A DNA stretch of 64,000 nt from Octopus sinensis. Lineage: Eukaryota. A program made the translations under genes and the position numbers. The stretch spans positions 37,200,001-37,264,000 of the forward strand of contig NC_043004.1 in assembly GCF_006345805.1 (NCBI RefSeq), in the 5' to 3' direction. The notes under the pieces were generated by a model that was not told where the DNA came from, did not search any database, and was given only the letters and a program-made list of their open reading frames with translations. Positions 3,211 to 26,431 of this stretch are shown in pieces; positions within the stretch are counted from its first letter, which is position 1; each line of letters starts with the position of its first letter.

Positions 3211-5722
3211 AATAATTTGTATACGTTTATATACATATATATAATTTGTATACGTTTATATACATATATATAATTTGTATACGTTTATATACATATATAT
3301 AATTTGTATACATATATATAATTTGTATACATATATATAATTTGTATATATTTGTGTACATATATATAATTTGTATATATTCGTATGCATATATATCATT
3401 TCTATACATTCGTATGCATATATATAATTTCTATACATTCGTATACGTATATATAATTTGTATACATTCGTATACGTATATATAATTTGTATACATTCGT
3501 ATACGTATATATAATTTGTATACATTCGTATACGTATATATAATTTGTATACATTCGTATACGTATATGTAATTTGTATACATTCGTATACGTATATGTA
3601 ATTTGTATACATTCGTATACGTATATATAATTTGTATACATTCGTATACGTATATATAATTTGTATACATTCGTATACGTATATATAATTTGTATACATT
3701 CGTATACGTATATATAATTTGTATACATTCGTATACGTATATATAATTTGTATACATTCGTATACGTATATATAATTTGTATACATTCGTATACGTATAT
3801 ATAATTTGTATACATTCGTATACGTATATATAATTTGTATACATTCGTATACGTATATATAATTTGTATACATTCATATATATAATTTGTATACATTCAT
3901 ATACATAATTTGTATACATTCATATACATAATTTGTATACATTCATATACATAATTTGTATACATTCATATACATAATTTGTATACATTCATATACATAA
4001 TTTGTATACATTCATATACATAATTTGTATACATTCGTATAAATAATTTGTATACATTCGTATAAATAATTTGTATACATTCGTATAAATAATTTGTATA
4101 CATTCGTATAAATAATTTGTATACATTCGTATAAATAATTTGTATACATTCGTATAAATAATTTGTATACATTCATATAAATAATTTGTATACATTCATA
4201 TCCATATAAATAATTTGTATACATTCATATCCATATAATAAAATTTGTATACATTCATATCCATATAAATAATTTGTATACATTCATATCCATATAAATA
4301 ATTTGTATACATTCATATCCATATAAATAATTTGTATACATTCATATCCATATAAATAATTTGTATACATTCATATCCATATAAATAATTTGTATACATT
4401 CATATCCATATAAATAACTTGTATACATTCATATCCATATAAATAATTTGTATACATTCATATCCATATAAATAATTTGTATACATTCATATCCATATAA
4501 ATAATTTGTATACATTCATATCCATATAAATAATTTGTATATATTCATATCCATATAAATAATTTGTATATATTCATATCCATATAAATAATTTGTATAT
4601 ATTCATATCCATATAAATAATTTGTATATATTCATATCCATATAAATAATTTGTATATATTCATATCCATATAAATAATTTGTATATATTCATATACATA
4701 TAAATAATTTGTATATATTCATATCCATATAAATAATTTGTATATATTCATATCCATATAAATAATTTGTATGTATTCATATCCATATAAATAATTTGTA
4801 TATATTCATATCCATATAAATAATTTGTATATATTCATATCCATATAAATAATTTGTATATATTCATATACATATAAATAATTTGTATATATTCATATAC
4901 ATATAAATAATTTGTATATATTCATATACATATAAATAATTTGTATATATTCATATACATATATATATAATTTGTATATATTCATATACATATATATAAT
5001 TTGTATACGCTTATATACATATATATAAATTGTATACGTTTATATACATATATATAAGTTGTATACATATATACATATATATAATTTGTATGCATATATA
5101 TAATTTGTATATATTTACATGCATTTATACGGTTTGTATATATTTACATGCATATATACGGTTTGTATATATTTACATACATATATGCAGTTTGTATATA
5201 TTTACATACATATATGCAGTTTGTATATATTTACATACATATATGCAGTTTGTATATATTTACATACATATATGCAGTTTGTATATATTTACATACATAT
5301 ATGCAGTTTGTATATATTTACATACATATATGCAGTTTGTATATATTTACATACCTATATGCAATTTGCATATATTTACATTCCTATATGCAATTTGCAT
5401 ATATTTACATACCTATATGCAATTTGCATGTATTTACATACCTATATACAATTTGCATGTATTTACATACCTATATACAATTTGCATGTATTTACATACC
5501 TATATACAATTTGCATGTATATACATACCTATATACAATTTGCATGTATTTACATACCTATATACAATTTGCATGTATTTACATACCTATATACAATTTG
5601 CATATATTTACATACCTATATACAATTTGCATATATTTACATACCTATCTACACTTTGCATATATTTACATACCTATATACAATTTGCATATATTTACAT
5701 ACGTATATACAATTTGCATATA
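3211..5722. repeat. AT-rich minisatellite with 29 and 23 bp units (TTTGTATACATTCGTATACGTATATATAA and variants); also 2090-2194
   Basis: Direct tandem units in successive blocks of variants. The ORFs here are artefacts of the repeat. Confidence 0.95.
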
Positions 5723-5915
5723 TACAATTGTCTATAAAGCATACAATGTAGAGAGAAAAAGAAGATTTGAACACCTGGAGGAAAGCACCATCGAAATGTG
5801 TCTTTGTGCGACTATGAAAGATATCCCCACAGAAGTAGAGGTAGGCTGGATTGTAGCCACACTTCTACATCAGAGGGAGGACAAAATACAATTGGTCGAA
5901 ATTGCAAGAGACGGG
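5723..5915 (+). pseudogene. Internally deleted fragment of a Tx1-like ORF1 related to the 11-20 kb elements
   Basis: TIVYKAYNVERKRRFEHLEESTIEMCL resembles TIIYRTQDTTTRKLSRIAIEDIEKCL. KDIPTEVEVGWIVATLLHQREDKIQLVEI resembles KVPPNIKTEMLVTAIIGAAKEEVEIGSI. Confidence 0.55.
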
Positions 5916-6082
5916 CCTACAATTCCAGTCTGTTATATATTTTGAGTATTGTTATCACTAGCGATATCAAGATATAACATTGTATTTTGTATTTTATGTG
6001 TAAATGTATATATATACATATATATATGTATATATATGTGTACATGTAATATGAACACATATATATACTCATATATACATGG

Positions 6083-6600
6083 ACTAGCACTATGACCCGG
6101 CAACGACCGTGTCATAATGCTAGTATATCGATATATATGAAACTAAGAATGTGTATCTGTCTGTGTGAATCCCTATAACTTGAGAACAACACAACCAATT
6201 TCATTCAAATTTTACACACGCCTTGCTTAGGGCCCACGGAGTGTCAGGAGCAGGGCTCTGGGCGCCATAGGGGTCACTGTCCACGGCTACGAGACAACAG
6301 TGAGCGCTATGGCGACCAGAGCTCGCTACGAGACAACAGTGAGCGCTATGGCGACCAGAGCTCGCTACGAGACAACAGTGAGCGCTATGGCGACCAGAGC
6401 TCGCTACGAGACAACAGTGAGCGCTATGGCGACCAGAGCTCGCTACGAGACAACAGTGAGCGCTATGGCGACCAGAGCTCGCTACGAGACAACAGTGAGC
6501 GCTATGGCGACGGTCTCACCACTATAAACGGCTTGGCTTGGGCTTGGGCTTGGGCTTGGGCTTGGGCTTGGCTTGGCAAGGAGAGGAAGAAGAATCTTAG
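6083..6600. mobile_element. Helitron-like non-autonomous element with a double-CTAG hairpin end (right boundary uncertain)
   Basis: ACTAGCACTATGAC...GTCATAATGCTAGT hairpin at 6083-6124, then sequence paralogous to 236-440. Confidence 0.55.
6287..6511. repeat. 39 bp tandem repeat (about 5.7 copies) followed by (GGCTTG)n at 6530-6577
   Basis: Identical GCTACGAGACAACAGTGAGCGCTATGGCGACCAGAGCTC units with no spacers. A single copy is present in the paralog at 379-420. Confidence 0.95.
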
Positions 6601-7430
6601 TTACATAGAGAACTATAGCGTGAAGGCAGAATATAAAAAAACAAACAACTCTTCCTCAGATGTTGGCAATTTTACTTGCTCCGCATTGCAACAAGATGTG
6701 TCTTCGTCAAAGCAATTGCTCCCCCAAACCAAATTAGATAAAATTTGAGATACGTGGAACGTCAAAGCTGCTAACAAAATCAGGACAGTCAAAATTTTCG
6801 CTAAGGGCTGGTTAACCCTAACGAGATGACGTGGTGAACGCTGGAGAAAGAAAGCTTTGTCAAGAGGCAGACGGGAGTGCATGAAGAAAAAGAAATACAT
6901 TTAGAAATAGATCTATAGTTATTGAGGACAGAATTTCTGTTAGAAATAGAGAACTATGAATATTGAATTATGCATAAAGCGCTGACTTACATTCGGGGCT
7001 TCCAATTTCTCTGTAAAATATAAGATAGTCGCAAAATCATCGCACATGTCACCATCGATTACAAACGCCGGTGGAAGATAAACGTTCCAGAGGACATTCT
7101 TGTTCTTTCGTTCGTACAAGGATCGTATTATGTTTCGGCTTAAAATAAATTATAGATACAAATATAATGTATAGAAATATATAAAAACCAGAATAGAAAA
7201 TAAACGTCTTAGGCATATAAAATGAGATATCAAGGTGTTATAAACTTGAAACTTACTAGAAAATCATAGATTATATATATCAAGTCATCCAGTCAGTTCT
7301 GTCCAATTTTACCTGCTTTTTAGAGTTGAATGAAATTTAATAGTATTTGCAAATGTCTAATTCAATTAAAAATTATTTTTATGCATTTGTGTACGTTTAA
7401 ACTAATTCAATATTGTTTTACAAAATAATA

Positions 7431-8717
7431 GACGGTGTCCACAAAGTCTGCGTACATGGGAATTAACACATACATTTAAAACAAAACAATTTTATTTAAT
7501 TATAATAAATAATATTTTCAAAGTGATTTCCATCATTTTCAATGCATAACTTGATGCGCCTTGCAAAATTCAGGTGAACTTGATTAAATAAGTCTATATT
7601 GCCATCAATTTAAGCACACTGACTGGTAATGCGTTCTCTGGTGTGTTTGAAATCTGTAATCTTTATTGAGTAAACTTTCTCTTTCAACATACCCCAGAAA
7701 AAGAAATCAAGGGGAGAAAGGTCTGGTGAACGAGGGGACCATTCCATATGACCCCTTCTTCCAATCTAGTGAGGAGGAAAAGTGTCATTAAATCAATCTC
7801 TAACAGTTGTGGCAAAATGGGTAGGGGCCTCATCCTGCTGAAACCAATTCGGAAGGTCCTCGCCTAGGCGCTCAATTTAAGATATTAATTTGTCTCTCAA
7901 TATATTTGCATAAGTCTCATCCGTTACATGTTCAATGAAGAAGGGTCCTAGAACATGAGCTTTCCAAAAACCACACCACACCATCACCTTTTTGCTGTCT
8001 TGCCGTTTGGATAGATCCATCCAATGTGGATTACCTCGAGACCAGTATAGAAGATTCTGTCTGTTGACCTCACCATTTACATAAAACGTAGCTTTGTCAC
8101 TGAACAACACAAAGTTTTTCGTAAAATTGATATTTTCATCCAATTTATTCGCCTATCAGGATCGTCTTAATTTAAGTGATGCAATATCTGTAGGTTGTAT
8201 CGATGAAACTTTTCCTCAACCAGCATTTTGTGGATGGTTGGTTTTGGAACACCTAACACCGTAGATGTCCGACGAAGTGATTTTGGGGGGCTAGCTAGCA
8301 GAAACTTTAGCCTCGACAGCCTCTTTAGTTTCATCTGAAGTCTTTGGTCGCCCGGAACGGGGTTTATCCGAAACACTGCCTGTTTCTTTAAATTTCTTGA
8401 TCAATTTCCTGACGGCAGTAAAATAAATAGGTTGCCTACAAGGGTGTGGAAGATTAAATTCTTCCGCAATTTTGCGATAAGACCATCCCTCTCGTCCACT
8501 TAATAATACTAACTCGATTCTTTCTTCTTTAGATAGATTCATCATTCGATCTGGGATTCTTTCTTCTTTAGACAGAGCCATCATTCGATCATCTGTAGAA
8601 AAAATAACAAATAAATTTAGAAAAGTAAAGTATTTTTTTAATTTAATTTAAACAAAAGTAAAAAAGGAAAATTATTATTTCTTATGTTGTGATTTTATTC
8701 CATAAACCCAGACTTCG
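7431..8717 (-). mobile_element. Tc1/mariner DD41D (rosa/VS-like) transposon, decayed
   Basis: HTH region KFKETGSVSDKPRSGRP and VLFSDKATF. The span WFQQD...WSPRSPDLSPLD has 41 residues between the last two Asp. TA plus TIR GACGGTGTCC at 7429-7460, and a partial inverted copy near 8692-8717. Confidence 0.85.
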
Positions 8718-8719
8718 TT

Positions 8720-9675
8720 TTGATTAAATTGCTTTGATTAAAACCCTTTCAACATGGAAGTATCCAAGGAGCATTTAAGGCACATATAATTCTTTATGAG
8801 TACAATAAAGGTAACTCTGCAGCCGAAGTGACTCGAAACATACACTCAGTTTATGGCAAAGTGCTCGAATGAAAGAACTTGCAGGAGATCGTCTGCAAAA
8901 TTGAAGATGAATATCGAACAGGATGTCCAGTTGAGTTTGACAAGCTCCTTGAGGCATTACTTGAAGAAAATCCGTCATTATCAGTTGAAGAATTGGCAAT
9001 AAAGCTTACTTCAAACCATACAACAGTTCATCGTCATCTTCAACAACGTGGAAAGATTTCTAAACTTGGAAAATAGGTGCCTTATGTATTGTCCGAAAGC
9101 AACCGCAAATCCAGAGTTGGCATCTGCTCTTCTCTCCATTCTCGCAAACTCATTTCACCCTTTTTCGATAGACTTGTGATGAAAAATGGATTTTCTATCG
9201 AAATGTTAGACGTCGTAAACAGTGGCTTGGTAAAAGGGAAAATTCTCAACCACAACCGAGAAGGGAACTTCATGGGAAAAAGGTTCTACTCTCTATCTGG
9301 TGCGATTGCAAAGGCGTAATTCACTTTATATTGTTACCACCTAATGCAACAATCAATGCTCAAGTCTACTGTCAGCAATTAGAGCGTTTGAACCAAGCTT
9401 TGAAGGAAAAAAGAGCCGCTTTAGTGTGTCGAAAACGAGTGATGTTTCATCAGGACAATGCGCAACCCCACATTGCAAAGATCACATCACAGAAGATCGA
9501 AGGGGTCGATTTGGAAAAATTTCTTCATCCAACTTATTCTCCCGATCTTACTCCTTCAGGATACCATTTCCTTCATAGTTTACAGAATTAGTAGGGGGAT
9601 ACAACTTTCGCAAGCCAGGGGGAGGTCGAACCTGACATTTCAGAGTTCTTCGCTTTGAAACCAAAAGAGTCATTG
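8720..9675 (+). mobile_element. mariner (DD34D-type) transposase pseudogene
   Basis: MEVSKEHLRH start at 8754, then KLGK*VPY, DEKWIFY, FHQDNAQPH and HPTYSPDLTPSGYHF, with frameshifts and stops. Confidence 0.85.
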
Positions 9676-10062
9676 GCGAAAATATATTTAAGACAGACGA
9701 TAAAAGTTCTATTTCTTACAAAATATCTTGTTACTAACACCGTACAAATTATTTTTATCTTTTACACCTTATTCAAAATTTATTTCGCTTTCTAATGATG
9801 CAGACAATAACCATTTTTATATAACTTGAAGAATTCTAATGCTAAATATAATTTTAATGGAGATAACCTGCAGTATATAGTACAACATTTTTGTCTCCGT
9901 ATATGAGACAAGTATTAATAAAATGTGGTATACGATAAAAAATTTCGGATATTTGTCTTAAAACATTCAGACAAGAAAATTCAGATGTAGCACATGAGGT
10001 ATTATTCCATACGAATATCCACATATTTATATTAAGAATTTCATGATAAAAATATAGAAATA

Positions 10063-10629
10063 TTGGGTTGTCCGGAAAGTTCTTGCCGATTTATAGCAGC
10101 TTATCTTTCGACTTATTTTAGAAAATGTTTGAGTCCATAAAATAGGATTTGACTACACCTCCATTTGGAGCACAGTTTAATCTATCTTTTCGTGGAAGAA
10201 GGTTTATGTTCCAATAACCTGTGTTAATTCTGTAACCCTTTAAATTAAAAGATGAGAAAAATTCCTTATCGGCATTTGATGCTTTGAGAACCAGACAAAA
10301 ATTGCTGCAGCTTGGCTGGGGTGACTTACCCCACCCTCCATATTCACCAGATATTACTCCTTCGGATTTCCACTTATTCAGGTCTCTGCAGAATAGTCTT
10401 AATGGAGAAAATTTCAATTCCTTAGATGACGTAAAAAGATACCTTGATGAATTATTTGCCTTGAAACTACCCCAATTCTGGGAAGAGGGTATTTTTAAGG
10501 TAAAGGTAAGATGGAGACGTATTGTGCAACGAAATGGTTCAGATTTGGTTCATTAAAAATGTAATGGCAAGTATTTAGTGACCATGTACTTTCCTTTAAA
10601 AATCAGAACGAACTTTCCGGACAACCCAA
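10063..10629 (+). mobile_element. Internally deleted mariner with both TIRs and TA TSDs
   Basis: TA|TTGGGTTGTCCGGAAAGTTC...GAACTTTCCGGACAACCCAA|TA. The ORF 10284-10556 contains HPPYSPDITPSDFHLFRSLQN. Confidence 0.9.
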
Positions 10630-10827
10630 TATAAACAAAACAATGAAATACGAATATAAACATGAAAAATAAAAACCTAAATTGAAAGAGGCGATTAAAA
10701 TTTTTTCCTAACCTGCAGCCGTTTGTTGTACGAAGTATTCGAAATTCAGCCCTCCTTCCTCAGGGTTCCTTTCTCGAGGTAAAATCCAGCAGAAAGCAGT
10801 AAGGCACCACATGAAGAGTATTCAGTT

Positions 10828-12768
10828 GATTTTATTATTACCCACAAGGGGCGAACGTAGAGGGGGACAGTACAATCGGGGGAAAAAAATAAAAATAATG
10901 AATTATGAAAATATGTATAAATGTGGTGTAATGCTCCACCCGATCCCCGAAATCAGGCGGTTACATTTCGTCATTTTATAATGTTTTCAACAGTAACAAA
11001 TTCATTTTTCAGCATTTTACAATACATTTCAGTACATTTCAAAATATAATTTCAAAATACATTATCAATTACAGAAAAATTGTTTTCACAAATTCACATA
11101 TAAATCTTTCGCAATACATCTTTAAGGTTTCAAAATACATAACCAAAAGTCTTTCCAAATTTTCTCCTTTTCTTTTTTTTTTTTTTTTCCTTTAATTTTA
11201 AATTATCTCCATTACCTTTTTTAGGTCATTATAGTTTTCCATTTCTTTTGGGTACCTTAGTAGTCGGCACTTCATTTGTCTTGTTACATTCGTTCCAGCG
11301 GCTTTGATAAACGCCTCGGCGTTGTCTTCATGGATCAGTGCACCCGTTTCCTTCCACTCCGTGCCCATCCTGACCCATGAATATCCTTCCGTTTCGCTTA
11401 TAAGTTCTTCCATTTCGCCACAGTGTTTATACCAATGTACCAATGTTTATACCATTGTACCAATGTTCCGTAAAATTTGTATCTTCTATTTGACCCTATG
11501 TTTTCTTTGGTTTTCCTCTTCGGGCTTACTTCTTCTTTACTTCCCTCTCTCGGTTTTTCTCTTTCTCTCTTTTTGCTTTCCTTTTCTTTTTCCTTCTCTT
11601 GTCTTTTTGGTTCTTTGTCTGTCGTATGTTCTTTTCCTGTTTTTTCTTTTTCTTTTTGTGTAGTAGCCTTTCCTTTCTCTTGGTTCTGTTCCTTCTCTTG
11701 TTTTTTCCTGTTTTTTCACTTTCCTTTATTTTACTTTCTTTTTCTTTCTCTATTACCTGTGGCTTTTGTTCTTTTTCTATTAATTCCTTCTCTTTGCCTT
11801 CATTTTCCTTCTGTGTATTGTTATTTCCTTTTACCGTTGTTTCCTTTTCCTTGCTTTCTTTCTCCTTTAGAGTATTGTTCCCTTCTTCGGGTTCTTTTTC
11901 TTTCTCTTTTCTGTTTTCCTCTGCTCTTTCACACTCCGCCACAAATTCGTAAAGCGGACATTCTTTTTTAATATGACCTCTTGTCCCACATAGATAACAG
12001 TTGGGCTTCCTCCCCTCAACTATTACGCAGAGGGGTCTACCATCTTCTACTTCTATTTGGAAGGGAATTCGGTCTATATCTCTGTTTGTGGCTGTCAGCC
12101 ACATCTCTATTCCGAATCCCTTCCATTTCACTATGCTGGTCTCTTTTATCGATCCAATTTCTACACCTTCTTCTGCTGATCCTAGGATGGCTGTTACCAG
12201 CCATTCTGTTTTTAAATTTGGGGTTATGTTTGGGATTTTAACCCGCACCCCTCTTTTCCCCTTGTAGGTAGGCCACATGACGAAGTTTTCGCCTCTGAGT
12301 ACGGTGGTAGCTAGTGAGGCCGCAACTTCTTTTGTTGCGTACCTCACCTCCACCGTACCATATTTTCTGCCTCTGCATACAAAGGTAGCCTTTTTCATAA
12401 CGTCGTCCAGACATTTTTCTATGTCTTCTATCGCTATTCTCGATAGCTTTCTTGTGGTCGTGTCCTGTGTCCTATAGATTATAGTTTTGTCCTCTTTTCC
12501 CTCCTTTGCTTCAACAGGGGGGACCAGCTTCACTCTGTCATCCTCCCTTTCAATGAATTTCTCAAATTCCTCAAGCTGTTCTTTTTTAAAGAACACCTCT
12601 CTTACTGTCAGCGGCGTATCGCTTTTCATTGCGGCGACCCCCGCGTAAGTCTCCATGACTTGAGGGTCGGCGCACTTTCTACAAAAAGTTTCTAACGCGC
12701 AGCGGCAAATGCCTCGCGCGATTCAAATTTCAATTTCTATCTACAAAACTATCAATTACTTAACCGAC
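10828..12768 (-). mobile_element. ORF1-only non-autonomous Tx1/L1-clade retroelement, copy A
   Basis: Has a 5' UTR, a single ORF1, a 3' UTR and a tail shared with the adjacent LINE. No APE or RT. Flanked by the direct repeat GAGTATTCAGTT (10816-10827 and 12769-12780). Confidence 0.8.
11198..12656 (-). pseudogene. ORF1p (RRM-like region, CX2CX4HX4C knuckle, K/E-rich linker, C-terminal domain), frameshifted
   Basis: 376 aa ORF with CYLCGTRGHIKKEC. The C-terminal part (11198-11443) is separated by A-run frameshift(s) and a 20 bp tandem duplication at 11424-11463. Confidence 0.8.
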
Positions 12769-13024
12769 GAGTATTCAGTTGATTTTATTACTACCCACAA
12801 GGGGCGAACATAGAGGGGACAATACAATCTGATGTGGGGTCAGACATACGGATGGTTTTTACAAAAAATCGGATTTAAAAATATCATGAAATTACAAAAA
12901 TACACACAAAATCGAATGATGGAATAGACCGGAAGACATTACAGATGGAGTGGGTGCGGGTTTAGCTCGGACCCCACGAGCCCCGCCTCTCCACTGATAC
13001 TTTTGGTTGCGCTTGGTATTACAT

Positions 13025-16000
13025 TTATGTTGTATCTTTTACTCGCAACTTCCGTGCCACATCTTTCCATCGTTCTTCATACACTCTCCTAGTCAGGCAT
13101 ATTCTCTCCAGCCCTATCTTCCTTTTCAGGTGGAAGATGAAATAATTCATCAAACCAGGGCCAGAGATGAACTTGCCTGACTGTAAACCTTTCACTCTCG
13201 TCTTCCATATCACCTCTTTCGCAATTGCTACTACGACGAGAAAACGAAACTTACCTTCATTCACGAGAAAATCCGGTGGGTCAATTTTTGTAATCGACTC
13301 AGTCGACAGCTGTACTCTTCGTGTACCTGACAACAGCTGTTCGGCATAAACCCACACCTCAGACACGTCCGGACAATGAACAATAGCGTGCGGAACGGTT
13401 TCCCTATCCCGCCCGCATCTTGGACATATCGGACTGTCTCGGCCACCGTGCCTTGCGAGTTTATCCCGAACAGGTAGAGCTCCTCTGTAGCATTGCCATG
13501 CCAGAGACTTCTGGAAGTTGTCCAGTGTCCTCGGCTTGAACGTACGTCGGAACAGACTGGCCAGCTGATTATCGTCGAGACCTAGGGTTTCCCCCAAGGT
13601 ATCTTCACATTCCGCCTCTACCAACCCTCTATAGAAGAATGTGGTGGAACCCCCACCGCAGGCGTTGCCCGAGCGACGGAATAGCAGGAGAGCCTTGCGA
13701 CACTCCGTGTACCAAGTACCGAGTTTCGATCTACGATCCAGCCAGGTTTCCCGTCCACCGAAACTAGTGAACTTGGAAACATCAGTTTTGCTAACGGAGA
13801 CCACACCCGTTCACCATCCAGGTAGAGCCACAGATGTCTTAACCTCAGCGCATGTCTGCGCATCATCAGCCAAGGCATCCCTAGCCCACCCTTTAACGGT
13901 TGTTGACAGCAAGTAGAGCGTTTCACAAGTGGTTTCCTACCCTTCCACAAGAAGTAGAAGAGCTGTCTTTCCAACTTGGTCAACCACGAATCGGGGCAAG
14001 GAACGACGGAAAGGCGGTAGGTGATAACCGATGCGATAAACACATTGGCCACCTCCGCCCTCCCTTTCAAGGATAGCCACCGCCAAGACCAGGTCTTGGC
14101 TACTGCAGCCACCTTGCTCGTTCCACCTCGCCCCAATTCTTCTCTATTTGGAGGTCTGGACCGAACCAGACCCCTAGCAGTTTAATCGGACCCTCCGTCC
14201 AACGTCCCACGACGCTGTCAGGAGGCATCGACTTGCCTCTCCAGGTGCCGAGTTGCAAGCCGACTGACTTTTCGCGATTAACTTTTGCTCCTGTCACCGT
14301 CTCGTAAACCTCTATGGCCTTGCCTACTTTACATAGGTGGTCCATTTCGGTTACGATGATGGTGATGTCATCCGCGTACGCTGACACTGATTTTCCATTA
14401 CCCGGCTGTCTCGGGATGCCGCTCAGTTTTCGCAGTAATGGCTCTAGAGCATCACGTACAAAAGCGGGGAGAGCGGACACCCTTGACGAACCGAGCGTTT
14501 GATTTTGAACGGCTTCGACAAGAAGCCGTTCACCCGAACTACCGAGTCGATGTTATCATACATTTGGATAATCCACCTGAGGAAGCCAAGGCTCAGCCCG
14601 AACTGTGCCAGGCAGATACCAGTAACGATGGTCGACCCTATCAAAGGCTTTAGATTGGTCTAAATGGACCAGTACCCCACCCTTGCCAGAATCATTATTA
14701 AACCCCTCTATAGTGTACCGCATTAGATGGAGATTATCCTGAATGGATCTGCCCGGAACGGCACATGTCTGTGCCTCTCCGATCAGACCATCCGCGACAC
14801 GCGCCAATCTTTTCGATAACACTTTGGCCAAAATCTTCAACTCTGTGTTTAGCAGAGTGATGGGCCTGAAATTATCAATGCACTCCCCCTTGCTCGGGTC
14901 CTTTCTGACGAGAGTCACTACTCCCCGGCGCACAGATCTGGGTATAAGCCCGTTCTGCTGCCAGTTCGCATAGACCTCCGCCAGTAGGTGCCCGAACAAG
15001 TCTGGCATACTCTTATATAACTCATAGGGTAGACCATCCAAACCCGGCGCCTTGCCTGCGCCGCAGTCCGCCATTGCCTCAAACACCTCCTCAGGCGTGA
15101 TTGGCCCTTCACAGCCCTCCGCATCTCGCCCCGATAAGCGCGGCAGCCCGTCGAGTAGGTCCGTAAAGGCCCTCCTCCTATCCAGTACGCCGCACTCACC
15201 GAAAATCTGAGCGAAGTGCTCCTGAAAGGCCTCACACATCTCCTCGGGTTCATTTATCAACTCACCTTGTTGGTTCGTCAAAGATCGAATCGTGGCACCG
15301 TTACCATGCTGAGCTTCCACCACTCGGGCCTCTCACGGCATTGATTCCTTCACATCCCATATGGCGGATTCTAGCCCTGACAATGCAGCCCATGTGTTTG
15401 GCCTCGAGGTGCTGGTTTAACACCAGTCTCTTGGACGCCACCTGAGCCGCAGAGCCAGTTTTCATGGCTTCCTCTAATTCCTTAACTAGAGTATTATCCC
15501 CTCTAGCCTCTCTAGCCACTACTCCTATGCTATATCTAATAGACTCAAACTTGATGGCTCGTTTGAGGGCGTACCACCATTTGTTATTAATGATGGCACC
15601 AGACAGCGCCCTCTGAATTATGGTCCTAATCCGGTCTTTGTACTCCTTAATCGCCAAAAGGGACGTATTAAGTTTCCAGTAACCGGATCCTCTATTTCTA
15701 ACCTTATCTATGTCAAGCTTACAAGTGACCATTTTATGATCACTGTAGCTGATCGGGTAAAACTGTGGACACTTAGCTATTTTACTGTCTACTTTTCTAA
15801 TTAGAATTCTATCTATATATGACCTGGAAGATCCGTCGCTGTTTGACCATGTCCACAATGAGCGTTCGAAATTCCAGCCTATACGGATCTGCTAGCTCAA
15901 AGCGGCTTAGCAGTTCCATGAAGCCACTGTTACCTCTCCTATCTGGACACGAGCCAACACAATCTACATCCGCTTTGCAAATGTGTTAAAGTCTCCTAGC

Positions 16001-16414
16001 ACCACTAATGAATGCGAAGTACCGAGAAATTTTTCTAGATCACGAAAATAATCACTTTGCCCTTTTTTACTGTTGGGTACGTAAATTGCAACCAGTCTGA
16101 TAACTTTACCATTACTGAACGTCAAATCCATGACGACCACCCTACCTTCTGGATCTGCAAAAATTAACTTTTTCTCAGAACCCGGTTTCTTTTTAATAGG
16201 ACAACACCCCTCTCCCGCCTGTAGGACTGCCAGGAGAGAAAAAACTCTCGTAGCCGTCAAACAGCGGGAGAAGACCTCTTGGCCCCTCTAACCAGGTTTC
16301 TGTAGCAACAATAACATCTAAATTACGCGACCTGATATCATGCAGGAAGCGACCTTGCTTCCAGCCTGCTCCCAGGCCGCGCACATTCAAACAACCAACA
16401 TAAATGTAATCCAT
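13025..16414 (-). pseudogene. ORF2p: AP endonuclease, reverse transcriptase and C-terminal Cys domain, with multiple frameshifts
   Basis: CLNVRGL, VATET, VLGDFN, SYIDRIL and SDHK (APE); GYWKLN; KAPGLDG, FRPITLLN, DQSKAFDRVDH, SVRQGCPLSP and AYADD (RT); CPRCG...HAIVHC. Confidence 0.92.
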
Positions 16415-16422
16415 TACTTACT

Positions 16423-17753
16423 TTATATCAGTGGTTCGGTTTTTTCGTTTTCTTCTTTTTTTGTCTCTTTTTCTGGGCCTCGTGGGGGAGTCTGACGCAG
16501 GCCCTCGAATATATATGGAGATGTTATATCCATTCTGAGCGGGCCTACGTCATGGAAAAATTCGGACTTTATCCGTCCGTAATCCTTCCGGCCTATTCTG
16601 TACAAAACATAGTCGTTTTTCTTCCCTATTTTTTCTACTTTGGCCATCGCTGCCAACACATTTCCTAGTCTATTGTTCGTGGCCTTAACGGCCATAAATG
16701 AGTTCAATGATTCCCTTTTTTTTTTTGGTTTACTTTGGGAGGGGTGGTTTCAGTTTTTCTTTTTTTCCTGGTGATTTTTGACCACCCCTCCTCCTTTTTC
16801 GTTTCCTCGCTCTTTTTTTTCCTCTTCCGTTGGTTCCGCTGCCTCTGTCACCTCCACACCTTCAGTCGTCCCTCCTGGGCCGACCAGCGCTGTTTCTGAC
16901 GACACGGCTTCTTCTTTTCCACTTGGCTGAGCTGCTTCCTGCGGTTTGGGTTGGGGCTGGCATTCTGCCCTTACATGCCCTTTCTTACCGCAGCCGAAGC
17001 ACCTCGGCTTTCTGCCCTCTACGAAGACTGTGACTCTTTCATCTTCGCTTATCTTTAGAGTCTCTGGGATCTCTTCCAGGGTTTGTACTTCTGCTTGTAT
17101 GGCTATTATATTTTTTGCCCTTTCCAGAATTCTTCTTCTTCTACGGTGGCCTGGAGGATGTTTATTTTTTCCTCCAGGCCTACCATAACTGCTGCCACCA
17201 TGACTTCGGCATCCGCTTCTGGCGGAATGTTATTCATGTGATCTTGGAAGTTCTCTTGCCTTTATACAGGGGTAGGAGAACAATATCCTCCGCTTTTATG
17301 GGTTCCATGGATAGCTTCTTCGCTACCTCCTCTGACGTGAATCTCACCTCCACTGTGCCGTATTTCTTCCCTCGATTGATATATGTTATTTTATCCATAA
17401 TCGGCTTTAAGCAGTTTTCGATCTTTTTCTCCTCTATTTTGTATTGCTCTGCTTGTTATACTGAATGTCTTATGATTATTCTCCTATTCGAAATTCCTCC
17501 GTATTTGGGCGTTTGAAGCCACGGTTACTTCCGTGCCCTCTTTTGACACACAGTCTGCATGTTTTCCCAGGTTGTCCACGTTAATTTTTTTAATTTTCTT
17601 CCCAGCTACTTCAGAAAATTTTCTCGCTGGTGCTGGAATGTCTTTTTCCTTTGGCGACCCCGCCTCTTTTTTCTTTGGCGACACCGCCTCTTTTTTCTTT
17701 GGCGACACCGCCGGTGATCCTGCATCACTTGAATTCGAGATGGGGGATTCCAT
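16423..17753 (-). pseudogene. ORF1p of the Tx1-like LINE, frameshifted
   Basis: RGKKYGTVEVRF, LPLYKGKR and VEGRKPRCFGCGKKGHVRAEC are homologous to the ORF1s of copies A and C. It has N-terminal SPKK repeats and stops 8 nt before the ORF2 ATG. Confidence 0.85.
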
Positions 17754-18028
17754 CTCTGATATCTGGCTTTAACAAGCCCTTGGCACAACCAAGATAATGA
17801 TAGCTCTTTCCCCCACGGAGGGGGGAAACACCAACACGGAGCCCTCGCACGAAGGCCGACTTCAACAGTTTTACAACAACACAGAAAGACAGCTAGACAC
17901 ACAGTAGATCACAACGGAGAAAATATACACAAAAAAAATACTAACTCACTATACACTATGACGAGCTGGTGAAAGTTCAGTTTTTGAGTATCTATGAATA
18001 TGAATCAGTGTCATTATATCACATCCTT

Positions 18029-20036
18029 TGTTTTATTATTACCCACTAGGGGCTACATAGATAGGACAATACAATCGGGAAAATGAATAATGAATTATGA
18101 AATTTGTACAATGTGGTGCAATGCCCACTCGATCCCCGAAATCGAGCGGTTACATTTCGTCAATTAATTTTGTTCGTCAACAATATTTTCAAATAAAACA
18201 TTTTATGCATTTTCAACATACATTTCAAAAAGTTTTACAAAAGTTCAACATTTCTTTTTTTTTTTTTTTTTTTTTTTTTTCCGATTTTAAAGTTCTTTTT
18301 ATCATTTCCAAATTAAGTTTTCACAATACCTTTTCTTTTATATATACTCCATTATGTCTACCAACTCTGGGTAAAATTCCATTGTTCGAGGCCACCTTGT
18401 AAGTCGGCATTTCATATGTTTTGACACGTTCTCGCCAGCTGCCTCGATGAACGCCTCGGCGTCTTTCTCGTGGACGAGTGCACCTGTTTCTTTCCATTCG
18501 GTGCCCATCCTGACCCACGTATATCCGTTTGTTACGCTTATTAAATCTTCCATCTCCTCACAGTGCCTGTGATGGATTAACGTTCCATAGTATTTGAATT
18601 TTCTATTCGTATCTACGTTTTCTCTAGTTTTTCTCTTAGGACTTACTTCCTCTTTTTTCTCCTCCCTCGGTTTCTCTCTTTCTCTCTTTTTGCTTTCTCT
18701 TCTTTCTTTTTCCTTCTCTTGTCTTTTTGGCTCTTTGTCTGCCGTCTCTCTACCCTGTGCCTTAATTCCATTCTGTTGTTTCTTTTCCTTTTTGCATACC
18801 ATTTTTCCTTTCTCTTGGTTCTGTTCCTTCTCTTGTCTTTTGTTCTTTGTCTGCCGTCTCTCTACCCTGTGTCTTAAGTTCCTTTCCTGTTGTTTCTTTT
18901 CCTTTCTCTCGGTTCTGTTCCTTCTCTTGTTCTTTTCCTGCTTTTTCTCTTCCCTTTAATGTACTTTCCTTTTCTTTCTCTTTCTTCTGCCTTGGCTCCT
19001 TCTCCACTACTTCTGCACCCTGTGAATTTTGCTCCTTTTCTACTATCTTCTTCCTTTGTTTTCATTTTCCTTCAGTGCGCTGTTACTTCCCTTCTCTTGT
19101 TGTTTCTCCGTTATTTCCTTTTCCTTGTTTTCGCTGTTCTTTCCTTCGTGTTCGTTTTCCTTCTCTCCACTTTGTGTCTCTTTTTGCTCCGCTGTGAATT
19201 CATACAGCGGACATTCCTTTTTTATGTGCCCTCTTGATCCGCACAGGTAGCAATTCGGTTTTCTGCCTTCCACTATTACACTAATTGTCTTCTCGTTTTC
19301 TATTTCTATTTGGAAGGGAAATCTTTCGATGTCTTCCATTTTGGCCATTAGCCACAACTCTACTCCGTATCCCTTCCAATTTACAACGTTCGACTCCTTA
19401 ATTGACCCTATTTCTACTTCCTCTTTTGCTGCCCCAATAATGGCTGTTACCAGCATTTCTGTTTTAATATTTGGGGGCACCTTTGGGACTCTTACCCGTA
19501 CCCCTCGTCTTCCTTTATACGTCGGCCACATGGTGAAATTTTCCGCTTTCAGGACAGTGGAAGCCAATGAGGCCGCCACTTCCTTTGTTGCGCATCTCAC
19601 CTCCACCGTACCATATTTCTTTCCTCTGTCTACAAAAGTCGCTTTTTTCATAATGTCCCCCAGACATTTCTCTATTTCTTCAATCGTCACTCTCACCAGT
19701 TTTCTCGTGTTTCTATCTTGCGTTCTATACGTTATCGTCTTGTTAATTTTTTCTTCTATTGTTTCCACAGGCGGGACCAGCTTCACGCTGTCACCCTCCC
19801 TTTTGACGAACTTCTCGTATTCCTTCAATTGTTCTTTTCTAAAGAACACTTCTCTTATTCTAAGAGACTCGTCACTTTTTGTTGTGGCGACCCCCGCGTA
19901 AGTCTCCATGACTTGAGGGTCGACACACCTTCTATAAAAGGTTCAAACACGTAGCGGCATACGCCTCGCGCGATTCAATTTTTAACAGTCTTTTTTCAAT
20001 TATCACATACAGAATAACTCACAACACATTATATGG
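18029..20036 (-). mobile_element. ORF1-only non-autonomous Tx1/L1-clade retroelement, copy C
   Basis: Colinear with copy A from 5' UTR to tail. Perfect 16 bp TSD ATTATATCACATCCTT at 18013-18028 and 20037-20052. Confidence 0.88.
18338..19909 (-). pseudogene. ORF1p of copy C, frameshifted in the low-complexity linker
   Basis: 288 aa N-terminal ORF with CYLCGSRGHIKKEC. The C-terminal ORF 18338-18802 contains WVRMGTEWKETGALVHE, and the linker has ~113 bp internal repeats. Confidence 0.8.
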
Positions 20037-20220
20037 ATTATATCACATCCTTGTATCAGATTTTTTTCAAGATTTTTTTCACGTTTAAATAAGAAATTAA
20101 AATCATTTAGTTCATCATGCAATTTTGGGAATATTCCATTTTTTATTAATATATACTACAATAACAAAGGAATTATTTAAGATTTTAGATTTATGCATAA
20201 GTATTCTTATGGTTCCAAAA

Positions 20221-20500
20221 CACATGGTTCTCAGTTCAGTCCCACTGTGTGGTAACTTGGCATGTGTCTTCTACTGTAGCCTGAGACCAACCAAAGCCTT
20301 GTCAGTGGATTTTGTAGACAGAAACTGAAAGAAATCAATCGTATATATATCTATGTATGTAAGTCTGTGTGTGTGTCTTTGTGTTTCTCCCTCATCACTG
20401 CTTCACAACTGGTGTTCGTTTATTTACATCCCCATAACATACTGGTTTCACAAGAAGAAACTGATAGAATAAGTACCAGGCTTATCAAAATTTTAAAAAG
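20221..20500 (+). mobile_element. tRNA-derived SINE family 2, degenerate; part of a ~330 bp local tandem duplication (second unit 20639-20708 plus 23494-23760)
   Basis: Matches the reverse complement of the 42953-43325 copy. Confidence 0.75.
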
Positions 20501-20576
20501 CTCTACGCAGTGTCTCACATTTTTGTTTGCCCACTCAGTTGTATCTATCAATTTATCTTTGTGTGTGTGTGTACAT

Positions 20577-20640
<64 letters not shown>

Positions 20641-20708
20641 ATTTCGTGGACAGGAACTGAAACAAATCAATCGTATATATATGTATGTATATATGTAAGT
20701 GTATGTGT

Positions 20709-23416
20709 TTTAGTATTGGCAACATGAATGACAATGGCCAGAGACTACTTGAATTTTGCACATACCATAACCTGTGCATCACCAACACATTCTTTCCCAA
20801 CAAGACATCCCACAAGGCATCTTGGAGACATCCAAGATCTCACCACTGGCATCAGTTGGATCTCATCATTACACAAAGATCCTTTCTGAATTCTGTTCAA
20901 CTGACCCGTAGCGCGGATTGTGAGACAGATCATTCACTAATAAGAAGGGTGAGGATTCTGCCTAAAAAGTCCATCACTCCAAGAAAATTAGCCAACCACG
21001 CTTATAACACTGCCAGAACCTCGAACCCTACACTGCGACAATGTTTTGCTGTTTTTATCAAGGTTGCTCTCAGTAGCTGCCCAACCTCCTCTGCTGAAAG
21101 TAGGTGGAATTATATCAGGGAAGCTTTGTATACCACATCAATAGATACTTTCGGAATGAGAGAAAGGTAAAACCCAGATTTTGTTCAGTGCTGGGCTCTC
21201 AGAGCTGGAACCAGTTATCGAAGCAAAGCGTACAGCTCTGATGCAATACAAGAGTGGTTCTTCTACAAAGTCACACGAAGAACTCAGAAAGGCAAGAAAT
21301 AAAACCCAACTGACTGCCAGACGCTATGCAAATGGGTATTGAAAGGAAATCTGTCAGAGTATCCAGTCAGCTGCTGACAGTGGCGCACCCGTGGGATGTA
21401 TGCCGGTTTGAAGAAGGCCCTCGGTCCATCCGCAAATACCTCAGCCCTTCTGAAATCAACTACTGGAGATCTCATCAGGGACCAAAGCAAGCAAATGGAT
21501 AGATGGATGGAGTACTACCAGGATCTCTACTCAGGAGAGACCACGGTAGCTGAGGCTGCAATCGAGGGTGTCAAGATCTTGCCAGTCATGTGTGAACTTG
21601 ACAGTCTGCCATCTATAGCAGAGCTCACCAAATCTATTGACTCCCTAGCAAGTAACAAGGCTCCGGGAAAAGACGGCATCCCCTTAGAGATCATCAAAAC
21701 CGGCAAAAACACCATCCTGCTTCGGCACATTCATGAGCTTCTGTGTCAGTGCAGGTAAGAGGGTACAGTCCCTCAGAATATGCGGGATGCTAACATTATT
21801 ACGCTTTACAAAAATAAAAGTGACCGTGATGATTGTAACAATTACCGTGGAAGATCTCTTCTAAGCACAGTTGGAAAGGCCTCTGCTTGCATTATCCTGT
21901 CCAGGCTGCAACTATTGCTTCTCGAATTTATCCAGAATCGCAGTGTGGCTTTAGAAGCAGATCAACTATTGTCATGATATTCTCCATACGCCAACTTCAG
22001 AAGTCCAGAGAGCAGAACATGCCATTATATATGGCCTTCATTGATCTGACAAAGGGCTTTGACTTGGTAAGTAGAAAAGGCCTCTTCATCCTGCTCCAAA
22101 AAATCGGATGTCCACCAAAGCTGCTGAGGATCATCAAATCATTCCATGCTAATATGCAAGGCACCATACAAGCACAATGGTTCAACATCAGCCGCCTTCC
22201 AAATAAAAAATGGGGTAGAGCAAGGTTATGTCCTTGCTCCTACATTATTTGGCATCTTCTTCTCGCTGCTGCTGTCACATGCCTTTGAGACATCAGATGA
22301 TGGAGTGTTTCTGCACAGTAGAAGTGATGGGGAACTGTTCAATCTCTCGCGTCTGCGTGCCAAGACCAAAATTTCAGAAGCATCCTGATCAAGGAGATGC
22401 TATTTGCTGATGATGCCGCTCTAGTATCACACACAGAAGAAGCCCTACGAAGGCACAGCAATGTGTTTGAGCAAGCATTTGGCAACTTTGGCTTAGTTAT
22501 CAGCCTCAAGAAGACCAACATCATGGGTCAGGCTACATCGGACATCCCAAACATACATATTGGAGACCACAGAGTATAGGAGGTGGAGAAGTTTACCTAT
22601 CTTGGTTCTCTACCGTCACCTACAACCTATCCCTTGATGCTGAGCTCAATATACGCATTGGCAAGGCAGCTGCTGTGATGGCCCAACTCACCAAACGCGC
22701 ATGGGACACAATAAGCTGACCAAGACCACAAAAATGAAGATTTACCAGGCATGTGTACTTAGCACTCTACTGTATGACTCTGACGCCATACACACGCCAT
22801 ACGACGCCATACGTCGCCTAAATATCTTTCACCTGCGCTGTCTCCGGAAAATCCATCGCATCAAATGGCAGAATCATGTCCCTAACAAAGATGTCCTCAA
22901 GCAAGCAGGAATACCAAGCATGTTTGCACTCTTCACACAAAGACGTATGAGATGGCTTGGACATGTTAGCCGTATGGAAGATGGCAGAATCCCCAAGGCA
23001 TACTCAACGGAGAGCTTGCTAGGGGCACTAGGTCTGTGGGAAGACCGTTCTTACGATACAAGGATGTTTGCAAAAGGGACATGAATGCCTGCAACATCAA
23101 TATTACCAACTGGGAAGCAGTTGCCAGCAACCGTGGAGATTGGCGACGTACCGTGAAAGAGGGAACACAAAGGAGTGACATAGTGAGAAAGGAGAAATGG
23201 AAAGACAAGAAAAGACGTCAACAAGAAACTATGACATTACAACCAGTCAGGCAAAGTCTTCGCTACATTTACGGCACCTGCCAGAGGGAGTGTTTGTCCC
23301 GGCTAGGACTACACAGCCACAGCAAGAGATGTATTAGGACATGAAATGTAAAAGCCGGACAAGATTATTTTATACGCAACTCCATTGTCTCCGAGACAAA
23401 AAGGATGCCAACACAC
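20709..23416 (+). mobile_element. RTE-clade LINE, 5'-truncated and decayed
   Basis: NDNGQRLLEFC, WRHPRSHHWHQLD, KAPGKDGIP, PESQCGFR, AFIDLTKGFD, LFADD and MRWLGHV. The 3' end reads CCATTGTCTCCGAGACAAAAAGGATGCC. A ~77 bp flanking duplication is present. Confidence 0.92.
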
Positions 23417-23708
23417 TATATATGGATTTCGTAGACAGGAACTGTAACAAATAAATCGTATATATATGTATGTATATATGTAAGTGTATGTGTGTGTCTT
23501 TGTCTCTGTGTTTCGCCCTCATCACTGCTTCACAACTGCTGTTCACTTATTTACATCCACATAACTTACTGGTTTCACAAGAACAAACTAATAGAGTAAG
23601 TACTAGGCTTATCAACATAAAAAAGCACTAGGCTGTGTATCATATTTTTGTTTGCTCACTCAGTTGTATCTATCAATTTATCTTTGTATGTGTGCATGTG
23701 TGTGTGTA

Positions 23709-23773
<65 letters not shown>

Positions 23774-23779
23774 TATATA

Positions 23780-25319
23780 TAACACCCTAATGGGAGCCTT
23801 AAATCCCAAATTTTAGTAATTTCTTTTATGATCCAAAACTTGGTCAAAAGTACTGAATGGATCTTTATGAAATTTGGAAATTATATTCTATGCATAAGGC
23901 CATAACACCCATGACAATTCATATATTTTTGCTGTTGATGAAATTTTAACCATAGACATTAGACACAAATGAAGTAATATCTATAAAATTTCATCTTACA
24001 AAGTTAGAAAGACCCCTCCATGGGGACTTAACAACTACAATTTTGTCATTTTATCTAAGCAAAAATGAATACAGTTGTGCTCTTGGAAGCTGTAGGGTTA
24101 CCCGAGCATAAAAGATGAGCATTATTTGTAATTCAATGGTACAACAGTGTAACAGTTTGCTTTGACATACACACTGCATAAATTGTCAAGTAGATGAGAG
24201 GCATCTTTGCCTCCACTGATTCAGTTGCAAAGTGTAGAGTAAAATTTATTTGATTGCAGACCTCCTTTCAGTCTTTTTATTATCACTCGGTCACACATAG
24301 TCCCCAGATGGTAACATTGATTTCAAGGCCTTCCCAGATGAGTAACTGGTTATTCGAAGACATTTATAGATTTTAAATTTATTCTGTCCAGTTACGTATC
24401 AGTATAGTGGTCATTTGCAAACTACAGAAGTGACACTTTCATTTCTCCTTAGCTCTCACGTCAAACAGTTGTTAATGTTGATTTCAGTTGGGTCACGCCC
24501 TTCCAATTGCTATAGATTTGTAATGCATCTTACGGCTGTGCCTGTCACCTGGATGGTGAGGAATCCTACATGTAGGATTCCTCACCATCCAGGTGACAGG
24601 CACAGCCGTAAGATGCATTACAAATCTATAGCAATTGGAAGGGCGTGACCCAACTGAAATCAACATTAACAACTGTTTGACGTGAGAGCTAAGGAGAAAT
24701 GAAATTTCAAGGCCTTCCCAGATGAGTGACTGGTTATTCGAAGACATTTATAGATTTTAAATTTATTCTGTCCAGTTACGTATCAGTATAGTTGCTGGCA
24801 ACTGCTTCCCTAGTAACGACTAGGGTAGGGTAACTGACTGCTTATTGTGATCATTCGTCTTTTGGTTTCCTGTAGCTTTGCTCTCTTTTACAAACCCAGT
24901 GAACATATATTTCCTATTTCAAAGAAATTCAAACAATAGATATAAAACCCAAGTTAAAAAGATTTTCAACAATTCAACTTCTCTGGTTGACATTAAGATG
25001 CCCACCCCCAACAGGGGCCTTAACTCTCACATTTTAGAGCTCCATGACCTTCATTTTTCAGGAACAAAATCTTTTTAACAAGTTAAATAAGACTGGAATA
25101 TGCGCATAAAAATTTTGGAATATGCGCATAAAAATCAGGATTATGGGATACATGTGGCACGATTACAATTTTTTAGGGTGTGTAAAGATTGAAATAACCC
25201 TCATCTGCAATTTTGATGAAATTCGAAACATAGATATTCCAGTTCATCACAGAAGATATAACAGAAAAGTCTAATTCTCCAATTGAATGTAATCGGGTAA
25301 CGCCGGGTATCTCTGCTAG
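23780..25319 (+). mobile_element. Probable non-autonomous Helitron (5' boundary uncertain)
   Basis: The 3' end CGGGTAACGCCGGGTATCTCTGCTAG|T has a hairpin plus CTAG like the other copies. The element starts after a (TA)n tract. Confidence 0.5.
24437..24704. repeat. 268 bp perfect spacerless palindrome flanked by 89 bp direct repeats (24320-24408 and 24704-24792)
   Basis: Centre CCTACA|TGTAGG at 24570/24571. Identical peptides are predicted on both strands. Confidence 0.97.
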
Positions 25320-25384
25320 TTATATATAAATATAAAAAAGTAAAAGATATGCAATAAATATAAATATGTATATAAAAGTAAAAA

Positions 25385-25439
<55 letters not shown>

Positions 25440-25549
25440 TTTCTTTTCTTCTTTATTCTTTTACTTGTTTCGACCCGAACACTTCTTTAAAGTAATTCTA
25501 TATATTTCGCAAGAAAGAACAATAATATTATGTATATACTTGCCACCAT

Positions 25550-25712
25550 CGGGGGGACAAACACAAACACACACACAGTTTCCGTCTACCAAATTCACTC
25601 ACAAGGCTTTGGTTGGCCTGAGGCTCTAGTAGAAGACCAAGGCGTCGCGTAATGGGGCTGAACCCAGAACCATGTAGTTGGTAAGCAGGCTACTTACCAC
25701 ACAGCCACTCAT
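25550..25712 (-). mobile_element. SINE family 2 head (tRNA-like); a second partial copy at 25872-26008
   Basis: GAGTGGCTGTGTGGTAAG (A box-like) and GGTTCAGCCCC (B box-like). Confidence 0.8.
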
Positions 25713-26032
25713 GCATATGTATGTGTGTGTGTGTGAGTGTGTGGGTGTGTGTGTGTGTGTGTGTGTTTGTGTGTGTCTGTGTGTAGTTTGACAAGTGTCA
25801 ATGAACGAAACTCTCACCCCCCCCGAGTCACTCTGTTGCTTCTGCTAAATATTGATAAACACATATATGACAAGCTTTTTCAGATTCCGTCAACCAAATC
25901 TACTCACAAGGGTTTAGTCGACCCAGGGCTATAGTAGAAACACCCGCTCAAAGTGCCACGCAGCTGGACTGAACCCGGAACAGCTTACAACACAGTCACG
26001 CCTGCTTCTATTCACATATATACATGATATAT

Positions 26033-26256
26033 ATTTCTTTTGCTACCCACAAGGGGCTAAACATAGAGGGGACAAACAAGGACAGACAAACGGATTAAGT
26101 CGATTACATCGACCCAGTCGAAACTGGTACTTTATTTATCGACCCCGAGAGGATGAAAGGCAAAGTCGACCTCGGCGGAATTTGAACTCAGAACGTAGAC
26201 GAAATACTGCTAAGCATTTCGCCCGGCGTGCTAACGCTTCTGCCAGCTCGCCGCCT
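26033..26256 (-). mobile_element. tRNA-derived SINE family 1 with a Tx1-like 3' tail
   Basis: A box-like TGGCAGAAGCGTTAG and B box GTTCAAATTCC. The central GCCTTTCATCCTCTCGGGGTCGATAAAT is reminiscent of the MetaSINE domain. The tail is TGTCCCCTCTATGTTTAGCCCCTTGTGGGTA. Confidence 0.88.

Positions 26257-26400: not shown

Positions 26401-26431
<31 letters not shown>

Follow-up and report, generated by a model that had tools for sequence, protein, structure and literature searches.

We describe a lineage of retroelements in Octopus sinensis that encode only the first open reading frame (ORF1) of a long interspersed nuclear element (LINE). It is exemplified by two elements, A and C, which lie on either side of a LINE, B, in a 64,000-nucleotide stretch of contig NC_043004.1 (positions 37,200,001 to 37,264,000; this whole stretch is the window, and coordinates count from its first base). 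We hold with high confidence that A and C represent an old and still multiplying octopus lineage of ORF1-only elements, here called half-LINEs, whose ORF1 is under purifying selection, whose 3' tail and insertion sites are shared with young LINEs, and which are likely copied in trans by the LINE ORF2 protein (ORF2p). We infer mobilisation in trans from the shared tail, the shared targets and the promiscuity of the half-LINEs in target choice. A preliminary description of this DNA had recognised A and C as ORF1-only elements; its coordinates are exact, and target duplications of 12 and 16 bp, respectively, are present.

Element A, LINE B and element C in the window

10816–10827, no strand: 12-bp target duplication 3' of A, site T3
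10828–12768, minus strand: element A, ORF1-only retroelement of the A subfamily
10830–10877, minus strand: 3' tail of A, common to LINE B and C
10916–10975, minus strand: stem-loop in the 3' untranslated region (UTR) of A, kept across the lineage
11198–12656, minus strand: ORF1 of A; the first 238 codons comprise two predicted RRM-like domains and a CCHC knuckle
12769–12780, no strand: 12-bp target duplication between A and B
12781–17965, minus strand: LINE B, L1/Tx1-type; ORF1 at 17753–16426, ORF2 at 16414–13028 with APE, reverse transcriptase (RT) and zf-RVT domains
17966–18012, no strand: 47 bases of host sequence between sites T4 and T3 of the insertion hot spot
18013–18028, no strand: 16-bp target duplication 3' of C, site T4
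18029–20036, minus strand: element C, ORF1-only retroelement of the C subfamily; ORF1 at 19909–18338, stem-loop at 18106–18164, tail at 18031–18076
20037–20052, no strand: 16-bp target duplication 5' of C

Reading along the minus strand, one meets C, then 47 bases of host sequence, LINE B and finally A. A and C align colinearly from end to end by BLASTN with 73–78% identity, as had been proposed, and no APE or RT was found within either. Over their last 47 bases A, B and C are 87–92% identical to one another, and none of the three has a poly(A). The earlier claim that the UTRs are unlike those of the LINE thus fails for these 47 bases. B was said to be a full LINE and does carry both reading frames, but in the window both are frameshifted; open-frame copies are found elsewhere. 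A search of window positions 5000–25000 against Rfam gave no match.

ORF1 of the half-LINEs consists of 238 conserved codons ending in the CCHC knuckle, a lysine/glutamate (K/E)-rich linker and a conserved C-terminal domain. The linker is interrupted in both window copies, by frame breaks in A and by a frameshift in C, where there is also an internal duplication, and the frames stay open for 376 and 288 amino acids (aa), respectively; in each, the C-terminal domain of ∼88 aa continues in a different frame after the break. At window position 19052 contigs of all four sequencing runs compared have one base more than the window, and the frameshift of C at this point is either private to the window copy or an assembly error. 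In contigs of four runs guessed to be RNA, a comparison made without a silent stretch as control, C is covered from its tail to its 5' end, and the flanking bins are uncovered in three of the four. The window stretch is present in 20 rows (9 studies, 4 organisms), none of them on record as RNA.

The ORF1 motifs quoted in the preliminary description are present, and the zinc knuckle (zf-CCHC) is the only domain that Pfam finds. The structural model of the N-domain is modest (predicted local distance difference test [pLDDT] 62, from 7 sequences) and matches tandem-RRM proteins with a best E of 1.8e-5, so that the half-LINE ORF1 protein (ORF1p) is predicted to be of type I (RRM-RRM-CCHC), a type linked to Tx1 (PMC5203782). 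The C-terminal domain is modelled as a ferredoxin-like unit (pLDDT 83), and no specific fold match was found with Foldseek (best E 0.065) or VIA (best Z 7.4, root-mean-square deviation 3.1, 74 aligned); by this model its likeness is to the common ferredoxin-like arrangement only. Across 20 copies, the 3' UTR stem-loop has 96% of cells paired, with two-sided changes at three pairs, and none of 500 shuffles reaches the observed percentage paired. Family E (below) and the LINEs have different hairpins which, by inspection, also carry a G-run in the loop.

Selection, family size and phylogeny

The N-domains of the window A and C ORF1s give a ratio of nonsynonymous to synonymous substitution (dN/dS) of 0.157 by the Nei–Gojobori method (95% bootstrap interval 0.10–0.23, dS 1.06), far below 1 and in keeping with the proposal that ORF1 is kept under selection. 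The C-terminal domains give 0.23, with a wide interval, by the same method. N-domain values are 0.150 for A against a third, common subfamily, D, and 0.123 for C against D; pairs of LINE ORF1s are as low (0.14–0.15). We do not read dS as a date, since reverse transcription inflates it. The ORF1 of A is only 34–37% identical to the ORF1s of the LINEs, and A and C are therefore not deletion products of the neighbouring LINE B.

Searches covered the genome, with the best 40 to 93 candidates of each search scored. The ORF1 of A returned 415 candidates, of which the best 40 were scored, and the 30 loci fetched contain A- or C-like units of ∼1.9 kb, many of them tandem. A 25-nucleotide motif of the 3' UTR has 337 exact genome matches, and the family thus has at least 337 copies. 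Among the first 30 matches in genome order, ORF1 or its C-terminal domain lies directly upstream in 29 and the remaining one is a short truncation; ORF2 lies near none of the 30. There are many copies of 1.7–2.0 kb bounded by target duplications and lacking ORF2, as had been anticipated, and among the elements examined, none with this ORF1 or 3' UTR carried an ORF2. One unit survey used a strict tail pattern that skipped some tails, and its long units are artefacts. Other ORF1-only copies have open frames of 466–517 aa, A-subfamily copies on other contigs are 99% identical to window element A, and all nine named protein homologues of ORF1 are labelled Octopus vulgaris.

Older copies were recovered by searching with a distant database relative. 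In the resulting tree A, C, D and these older copies form a ladder-like clade of 19 rows (support 100/100) that reaches down to ∼55% ORF1 identity and has no LINE ORF1 inside it; the sampled LINE families (B, Bb, F, I, K, M) all have their ORF1s outside it. Fourteen of the 19 rows have the stem-loop and tail straight after ORF1; one is without DNA context, three have broken or unread 3' ends, and the last is discussed below. Five rows were left out before the tree was built (three replaced by longer copies, two with long branches), and ten further rows were left out, including LINE J, which lies outside the clade in another tree. Because the clade holds no LINE ORF1 and 14 of its rows have the compact layout, a single, ancient loss of ORF2 is likely, and selection would have acted in the ORF1-only state. 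The view that this is a long-lived lineage and not a pair of one-off deletions is borne out by the depth of the clade.

Family E forms a second ORF1-only lineage; its tail is of the same type, and its ORF1 is a different one, 27–33% identical to that of the half-LINEs above. Its copies (L091:7622-9298; L175-L177; L257) are 1.68 kb, encode 454 aa, have a long 3' UTR hairpin and lie outside the A/C/D clade; an ATG overlaps their stop codon, an arrangement seen where LINE ORF1 meets ORF2. Two further units without ORF2 (L239:7600-9200 and L251:7991-9726) combine an ORF1 N-domain from outside the clade with an A/C/D-type stem-loop and tail, and from their sequences are possible ORF1 swaps onto the same 3' end.

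The partner LINE B belongs to a young family: its 40 best RT matches are 97–100% identical and copies are 98–99% alike. Copies elsewhere have an open ORF1 and an ORF2 of 1132 aa with APE, RT and zf-RVT, nearest to L1 ORF2p among solved structures. By its sequence features LINE B is L1/Tx1-type: ORF2 has APE, RT and a C-terminal zinc finger and no RNase H, ORF1 is of type I, and the preference for repeats as targets is a Tx1-type trait. The name Tx1 does not occur among the 120 matches listed for LINE B.

Target sites, hosts and arrays

Insertion junctions recur at fixed sites in two repeated hosts, T1 and T2 in host 2 and T3 and T4 in host 1, both of which are present in the window:

5727–6123, plus strand: host 2, a non-autonomous Helitron-like repeat, 3' part of an empty copy, with a hairpin and a CTAG end at 6123
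6530–10827, no strand: host 1, one arm of a dispersed duplicated block with the hot spot
20037–32750, no strand: host 1, other arm; copies of the block lie on other contigs

Host 2 is a repeat of 1.0–1.7 kb with the ends of a non-autonomous Helitron, namely a 5' TC and a 3' hairpin followed by CTAG, inserted between A and T; the hairpin is present in 25 of 30 loci, mostly followed by CTAG-T, and the 5' A-TC is clear in ∼10 of the 30. T2, the main target site, which in the window copy lies empty between 5772 and 5773, is within a decayed ORF1 fragment of an older LINE carried by the Helitron-like repeat (a fuller copy is at L038:9125-9791). It has 925 exact genome matches; 26 of 30 sampled are empty and three of the four that are occupied end in family E. 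T1 is not a separate cut but that of T2 in a deletion allele of the Helitron; in both, the upstream sequence is identical and the cut comes 7 bases beyond it. Definition of the target by bases downstream of the cut was accordingly dropped.

Host 1, a block of at least 26 kb, is dispersed over many contigs; a search for it gave 67 candidates, and its copies are 93–97% identical. Its hypervariable hot spot of ∼60 bp holds T3, T4, tail-only stubs and several LINE families. The tail-only insertions there are of 15–40 bases (L057, L061, L065, L071, L074, L075). The block (window ∼6530–32750 and beyond) has embedded Mariner remnants, short interspersed nuclear elements (SINEs) and an RT fragment, and several copies end near 6530; it is possibly a giant mobile unit. 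Near this boundary, at 6240–6510 and also at 340–420, tandem 39-bp repeats are followed by a short hexamer run.

Thirteen LINE 3' ends at T2 differ by 1.2% whereas their Helitron flanks differ by 8.0%, with host divergence above element divergence in 78 of 78 pairs, and the insertions are therefore independent. Copies of A that are 99% identical occur in both hosts. Exact tails number 319, and of the first 30 in genome order 22 lie in Helitron sites or arrays. A tally of 171 distinct junctions, 19 of them short or SINE tails, puts LINE B at T3 in eight of nine cases and LINE Bb at T2 in 25 of 28, whereas the 13 A junctions are at T1 (seven), T2 (two), T3 (two), T4 (one) and elsewhere (one); C and D are also inserted at several sites. 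One site per LINE subfamily and several for the half-LINEs is what borrowing in trans predicts. The tail is also approached by short abundant repeats, probably SINEs, whose own tails are much like it (minus strand, window 26035–26057, 50023–50045 and 60761–60783); this likeness suggests a related LINE partner for them.

The elements form head-to-tail arrays of up to ∼16 units with 12–20 bases between units. In 16 of 20 multi-unit Helitron arrays a LINE is 3'-most, usually preceded by C and then D (p ∼5e-5 against an assumed null of 0.35; three of the 20 arrays were found via a LINE search). A 5' junction is visible in 16 Helitron arrays; in 13 of these it is the same variant as the first internal junction and the 3' end keeps host sequence, while two have a deleted 5' junction and one differs. 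Such a match is consistent with arrays that extend at the 5' end and with recognition of sequence upstream of the cut. Arrays on three contigs have in common a junction variant, a D subclade (SH-like approximate likelihood ratio test [SH-aLRT] 97) and a LINE subclade (93), although their Helitrons differ by 7–9%; with modest support, these shared subclades point to linked movement. The ordered arrays, the fixed insertion sites and the shared 47 bases were missed in the preliminary description.

We note that one LINE at the 3' end of an array (L169:5200-7300; G000:C3:72168200-72170300) has 174 private substitutions, of which 158 are A-to-G on the sense strand; these are confined to its first 2 kb, and nothing of the kind occurs in four sister copies. 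The cluster looks like RNA hyper-editing fixed by retrotransposition, and thus like the trace of an RNA step for this LINE.

These observations suggest how the half-LINEs may move. Their RNA would be packaged by their own ORF1p, with its predicted RRM-RRM-CCHC region and C-terminal ferredoxin-like domain, and we propose that this is why ORF1 stays under selection. The shared tail, and perhaps also the G-rich stem-loop, would recruit LINE ORF2p. The borrowed endonuclease would set the site, reading mainly upstream of the cut an A-run and then a TTTGAAC- or TTTCACC-like stretch, and regeneration of this site at the 5' junction would let arrays lengthen there. That the endonuclease sets the site by upstream sequence and that arrays grow stepwise at their 5' ends we consider probable. 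Multi-unit trains with the LINE at their 3' end might in addition move together to new Helitron copies; that some have done so we put at a little short of an even chance. The two processes are mutually compatible, and read-through RNA, template jumping and ectopic gene conversion are indistinguishable with present data. A bolder scheme, which we offer speculatively and think doubtful, has at least two ancient lineages of protein-coding parasites of site-specific LINEs, with no autonomous member, in which whole trains (D...D-C...C-LINE, 7 to >16 kb) retrotranspose as units into one Helitron site and short inherited 5' tags sort the RNAs into chains.

Several points weigh against this picture. 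Specificity is not strict: eight of the 30 tails lie outside the known hosts, most at ACAT- or ACCT-like sites. The T2 divergence sample and the target tally were drawn by similarity to B or A and are non-random, and LINE family F is represented by only two junctions. For the stem-loop, only 75 of 500 shuffles fall below the observed count of two-sided pairs, in a control that ignores relatedness. Only the best candidates having been scored, a rare autonomous element with this ORF1 may exist. The remaining clade row, the old relative L243, passes from ORF1 into a mid-RT LINE fragment without APE, which we read as a later insertion or chimera. An ORF1-only unit is 3'-most in four of the 20 arrays, and in the tree of the trains, whose branches are very short, the LINE subclade falls short of the starred support threshold. 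DNA-level copying accounts for some arrays: c7a and c7b are one array, Helitron included, repeated 110 kb apart, and in c1a an internal duplication takes in Helitron sequence. The C7 pair (G000:C7:96716000-96866000; L279-L282, L093, L266, L267) consists of the same ten-unit array with its Helitron, present twice ∼110 kb apart, and is either a recent segmental duplication or an assembly artefact.

A different explanation is that half-LINEs move mainly as 5' cargo of LINE RNA, by read-through train transcripts or by end-to-end template jumps, in which the reverse transcriptase would pass from the 5' end of the LINE to the tail of a further RNA, and not as separate insertions. The 3'-most position of the LINE, the placing of D upstream of C in most arrays that have both, and the subclade and junction variant common to arrays in different Helitrons all favour it, and end-to-end template jumping has been cited for R2 (PMC2881922). 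Lone ORF1-only insertions exist, however (C in the window; L010, L027, L028, L030; the family E ends at three of four occupied T2 sites), and indicate that priming in trans on an element's own tail happens, and trains would require cDNAs of 7 to >16 kb; as the main route we regard cargo transport as unlikely, if worth attention. Passive spread of a few deleted LINEs, amplified with the Helitron or the duplicated block and arrayed by unequal crossover, has on its side that both hosts are multi-copy, that c7a/c7b and part of c1a are DNA-level duplicates, and that units in one array are often each other's nearest. Yet the flanks are far older than the elements they enclose, the majority of host sites are unoccupied, near-identical A copies sit in unrelated hosts with different target duplications, and dN/dS near 0.15 is not expected of passive copies. 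Passive spread is contradicted as the main route, for which it is scarcely tenable, and stands only as a secondary source of copies.

Two further alternatives concern the selection on ORF1 and not the route of movement. A, C and D could have arisen separately from unfound or extinct autonomous LINE subfamilies, selection having operated in those parents; in mammals HAL1 has had several origins (PMC5753468), and the genome searches scored the best candidates only. We think this very improbable, given the same compact layout of C-terminal domain, stem-loop and tail at 14 successive tips of one ladder, down to the most divergent ORF1s, and the absence of the sampled LINE ORF1s from the clade. ORF1 could alternatively have been domesticated by the host, or serve as a helper of the LINE instead of its own RNA, a role for which HeT-A ORF1p, which localises TART ORF1p to chromosome ends (PMC4700185), and the strong selection on ORF1 can be adduced. 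The copies, however, number in the hundreds, are scattered and mostly broken, and belong to successive subfamilies, as fits a selfish lineage, and the LINEs keep their own ORF1 under equal selection; this too is improbable, although a helper role may exist on top of selfish spread.

Relation to known systems

HeT-A (Jockey clade), HAL1 (L1 clade) and Ag-Sponge (CR1 clade) are classed as ORF1-present non-autonomous LINEs (PMC5786205), and three features of this group are found here: the elements encode ORF1p only, are multi-copy with independent insertions and target duplications, and have a 3' end in common with an autonomous LINE. The half-LINEs resemble HAL1 and Ag-Sponge in coding for ORF1p only, in having a LINE-like tail and, by analogy, in relying on a LINE for RT (PMC5786205, PMC5753468). 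They differ from HAL1 in having a type I ORF1 (RRM and CCHC) and not the mammalian type II (Transposase_22), and from both in having a site-preferring LINE of L1/Tx1 type as partner and no poly(A), in the depth of a lineage with no autonomous member found, and in the head-to-tail arrays inside other transposons. With HeT-A/TART/TAHRE they share mixed tandem arrays, extended at one end, in which an ORF1-only element stands beside a partner that carries RT (PMC4700185). The octopus arrays are, however, interstitial, bounded by target duplications and placed at endonuclease-type sites in a Helitron and a dispersed block; HeT-A is of the Jockey clade and telomere-specific, whereas the octopus partner is of L1/Tx1 type, and the octopus system has no known host function. 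The half-LINE thus works like HAL1 and HeT-A and is a member of neither.

There are also parallels to Tx1 families. In crocodilians Tx1-Mar LINEs and the SINE family SINEU target a Mariner, with tandem insertions (PMC4494074), and as with these and with Tx1 in Tx1D of Xenopus, the octopus LINEs prefer sites in non-autonomous DNA transposons, with two hot spots (PMC4494074). Tandem insertions split by a target duplication, and a non-autonomous passenger with the same targets, are likewise described there (PMC4494074). Unlike SINEU the octopus passenger codes for protein, and unlike the Tx1-Mar host the octopus host is Helitron-like, with its site in the ORF1 fragment of an older LINE and with ordered arrays of up to ∼16 units.

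An annotation of Octopus vulgaris has 80 L1-Tx1 consensus sequences, given without a description (PMC13282606), and this and a second source list L1-Tx1 in octopus without such structure (PMC13282606, PMC8967140). In our literature search, which had subscription papers and Repbase Reports outside its scope, we found no ORF1-only Tx1 derivatives, Helitron-targeting LINEs or such arrays in cephalopods. The claim of novelty was overstated, ORF1-only LINEs being a recognised category (PMC5786205). The parts have precedents in ORF1-only LINEs and transposon-targeting Tx1 elements; for the combination our search turned up no published account, and Repbase or Dfam may already contain a consensus.

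Automated repeat libraries would likely label half-LINEs as truncated L1-Tx1. Why an element unable to copy itself retains ORF1 is an open question, and it is made testable here: both partners have young copies with open frames, several LINE subfamilies differ in site, and the passenger lineage is deep and under selection equal to that on LINE ORF1. It can now be asked whether ORF1p is needed in cis, whether it co-assembles with LINE ORF1p, and whether the borrowed endonuclease sets the site. These elements add a Helitron to the safe-haven targets, and show HeT-A-like one-ended arrays away from telomeres.

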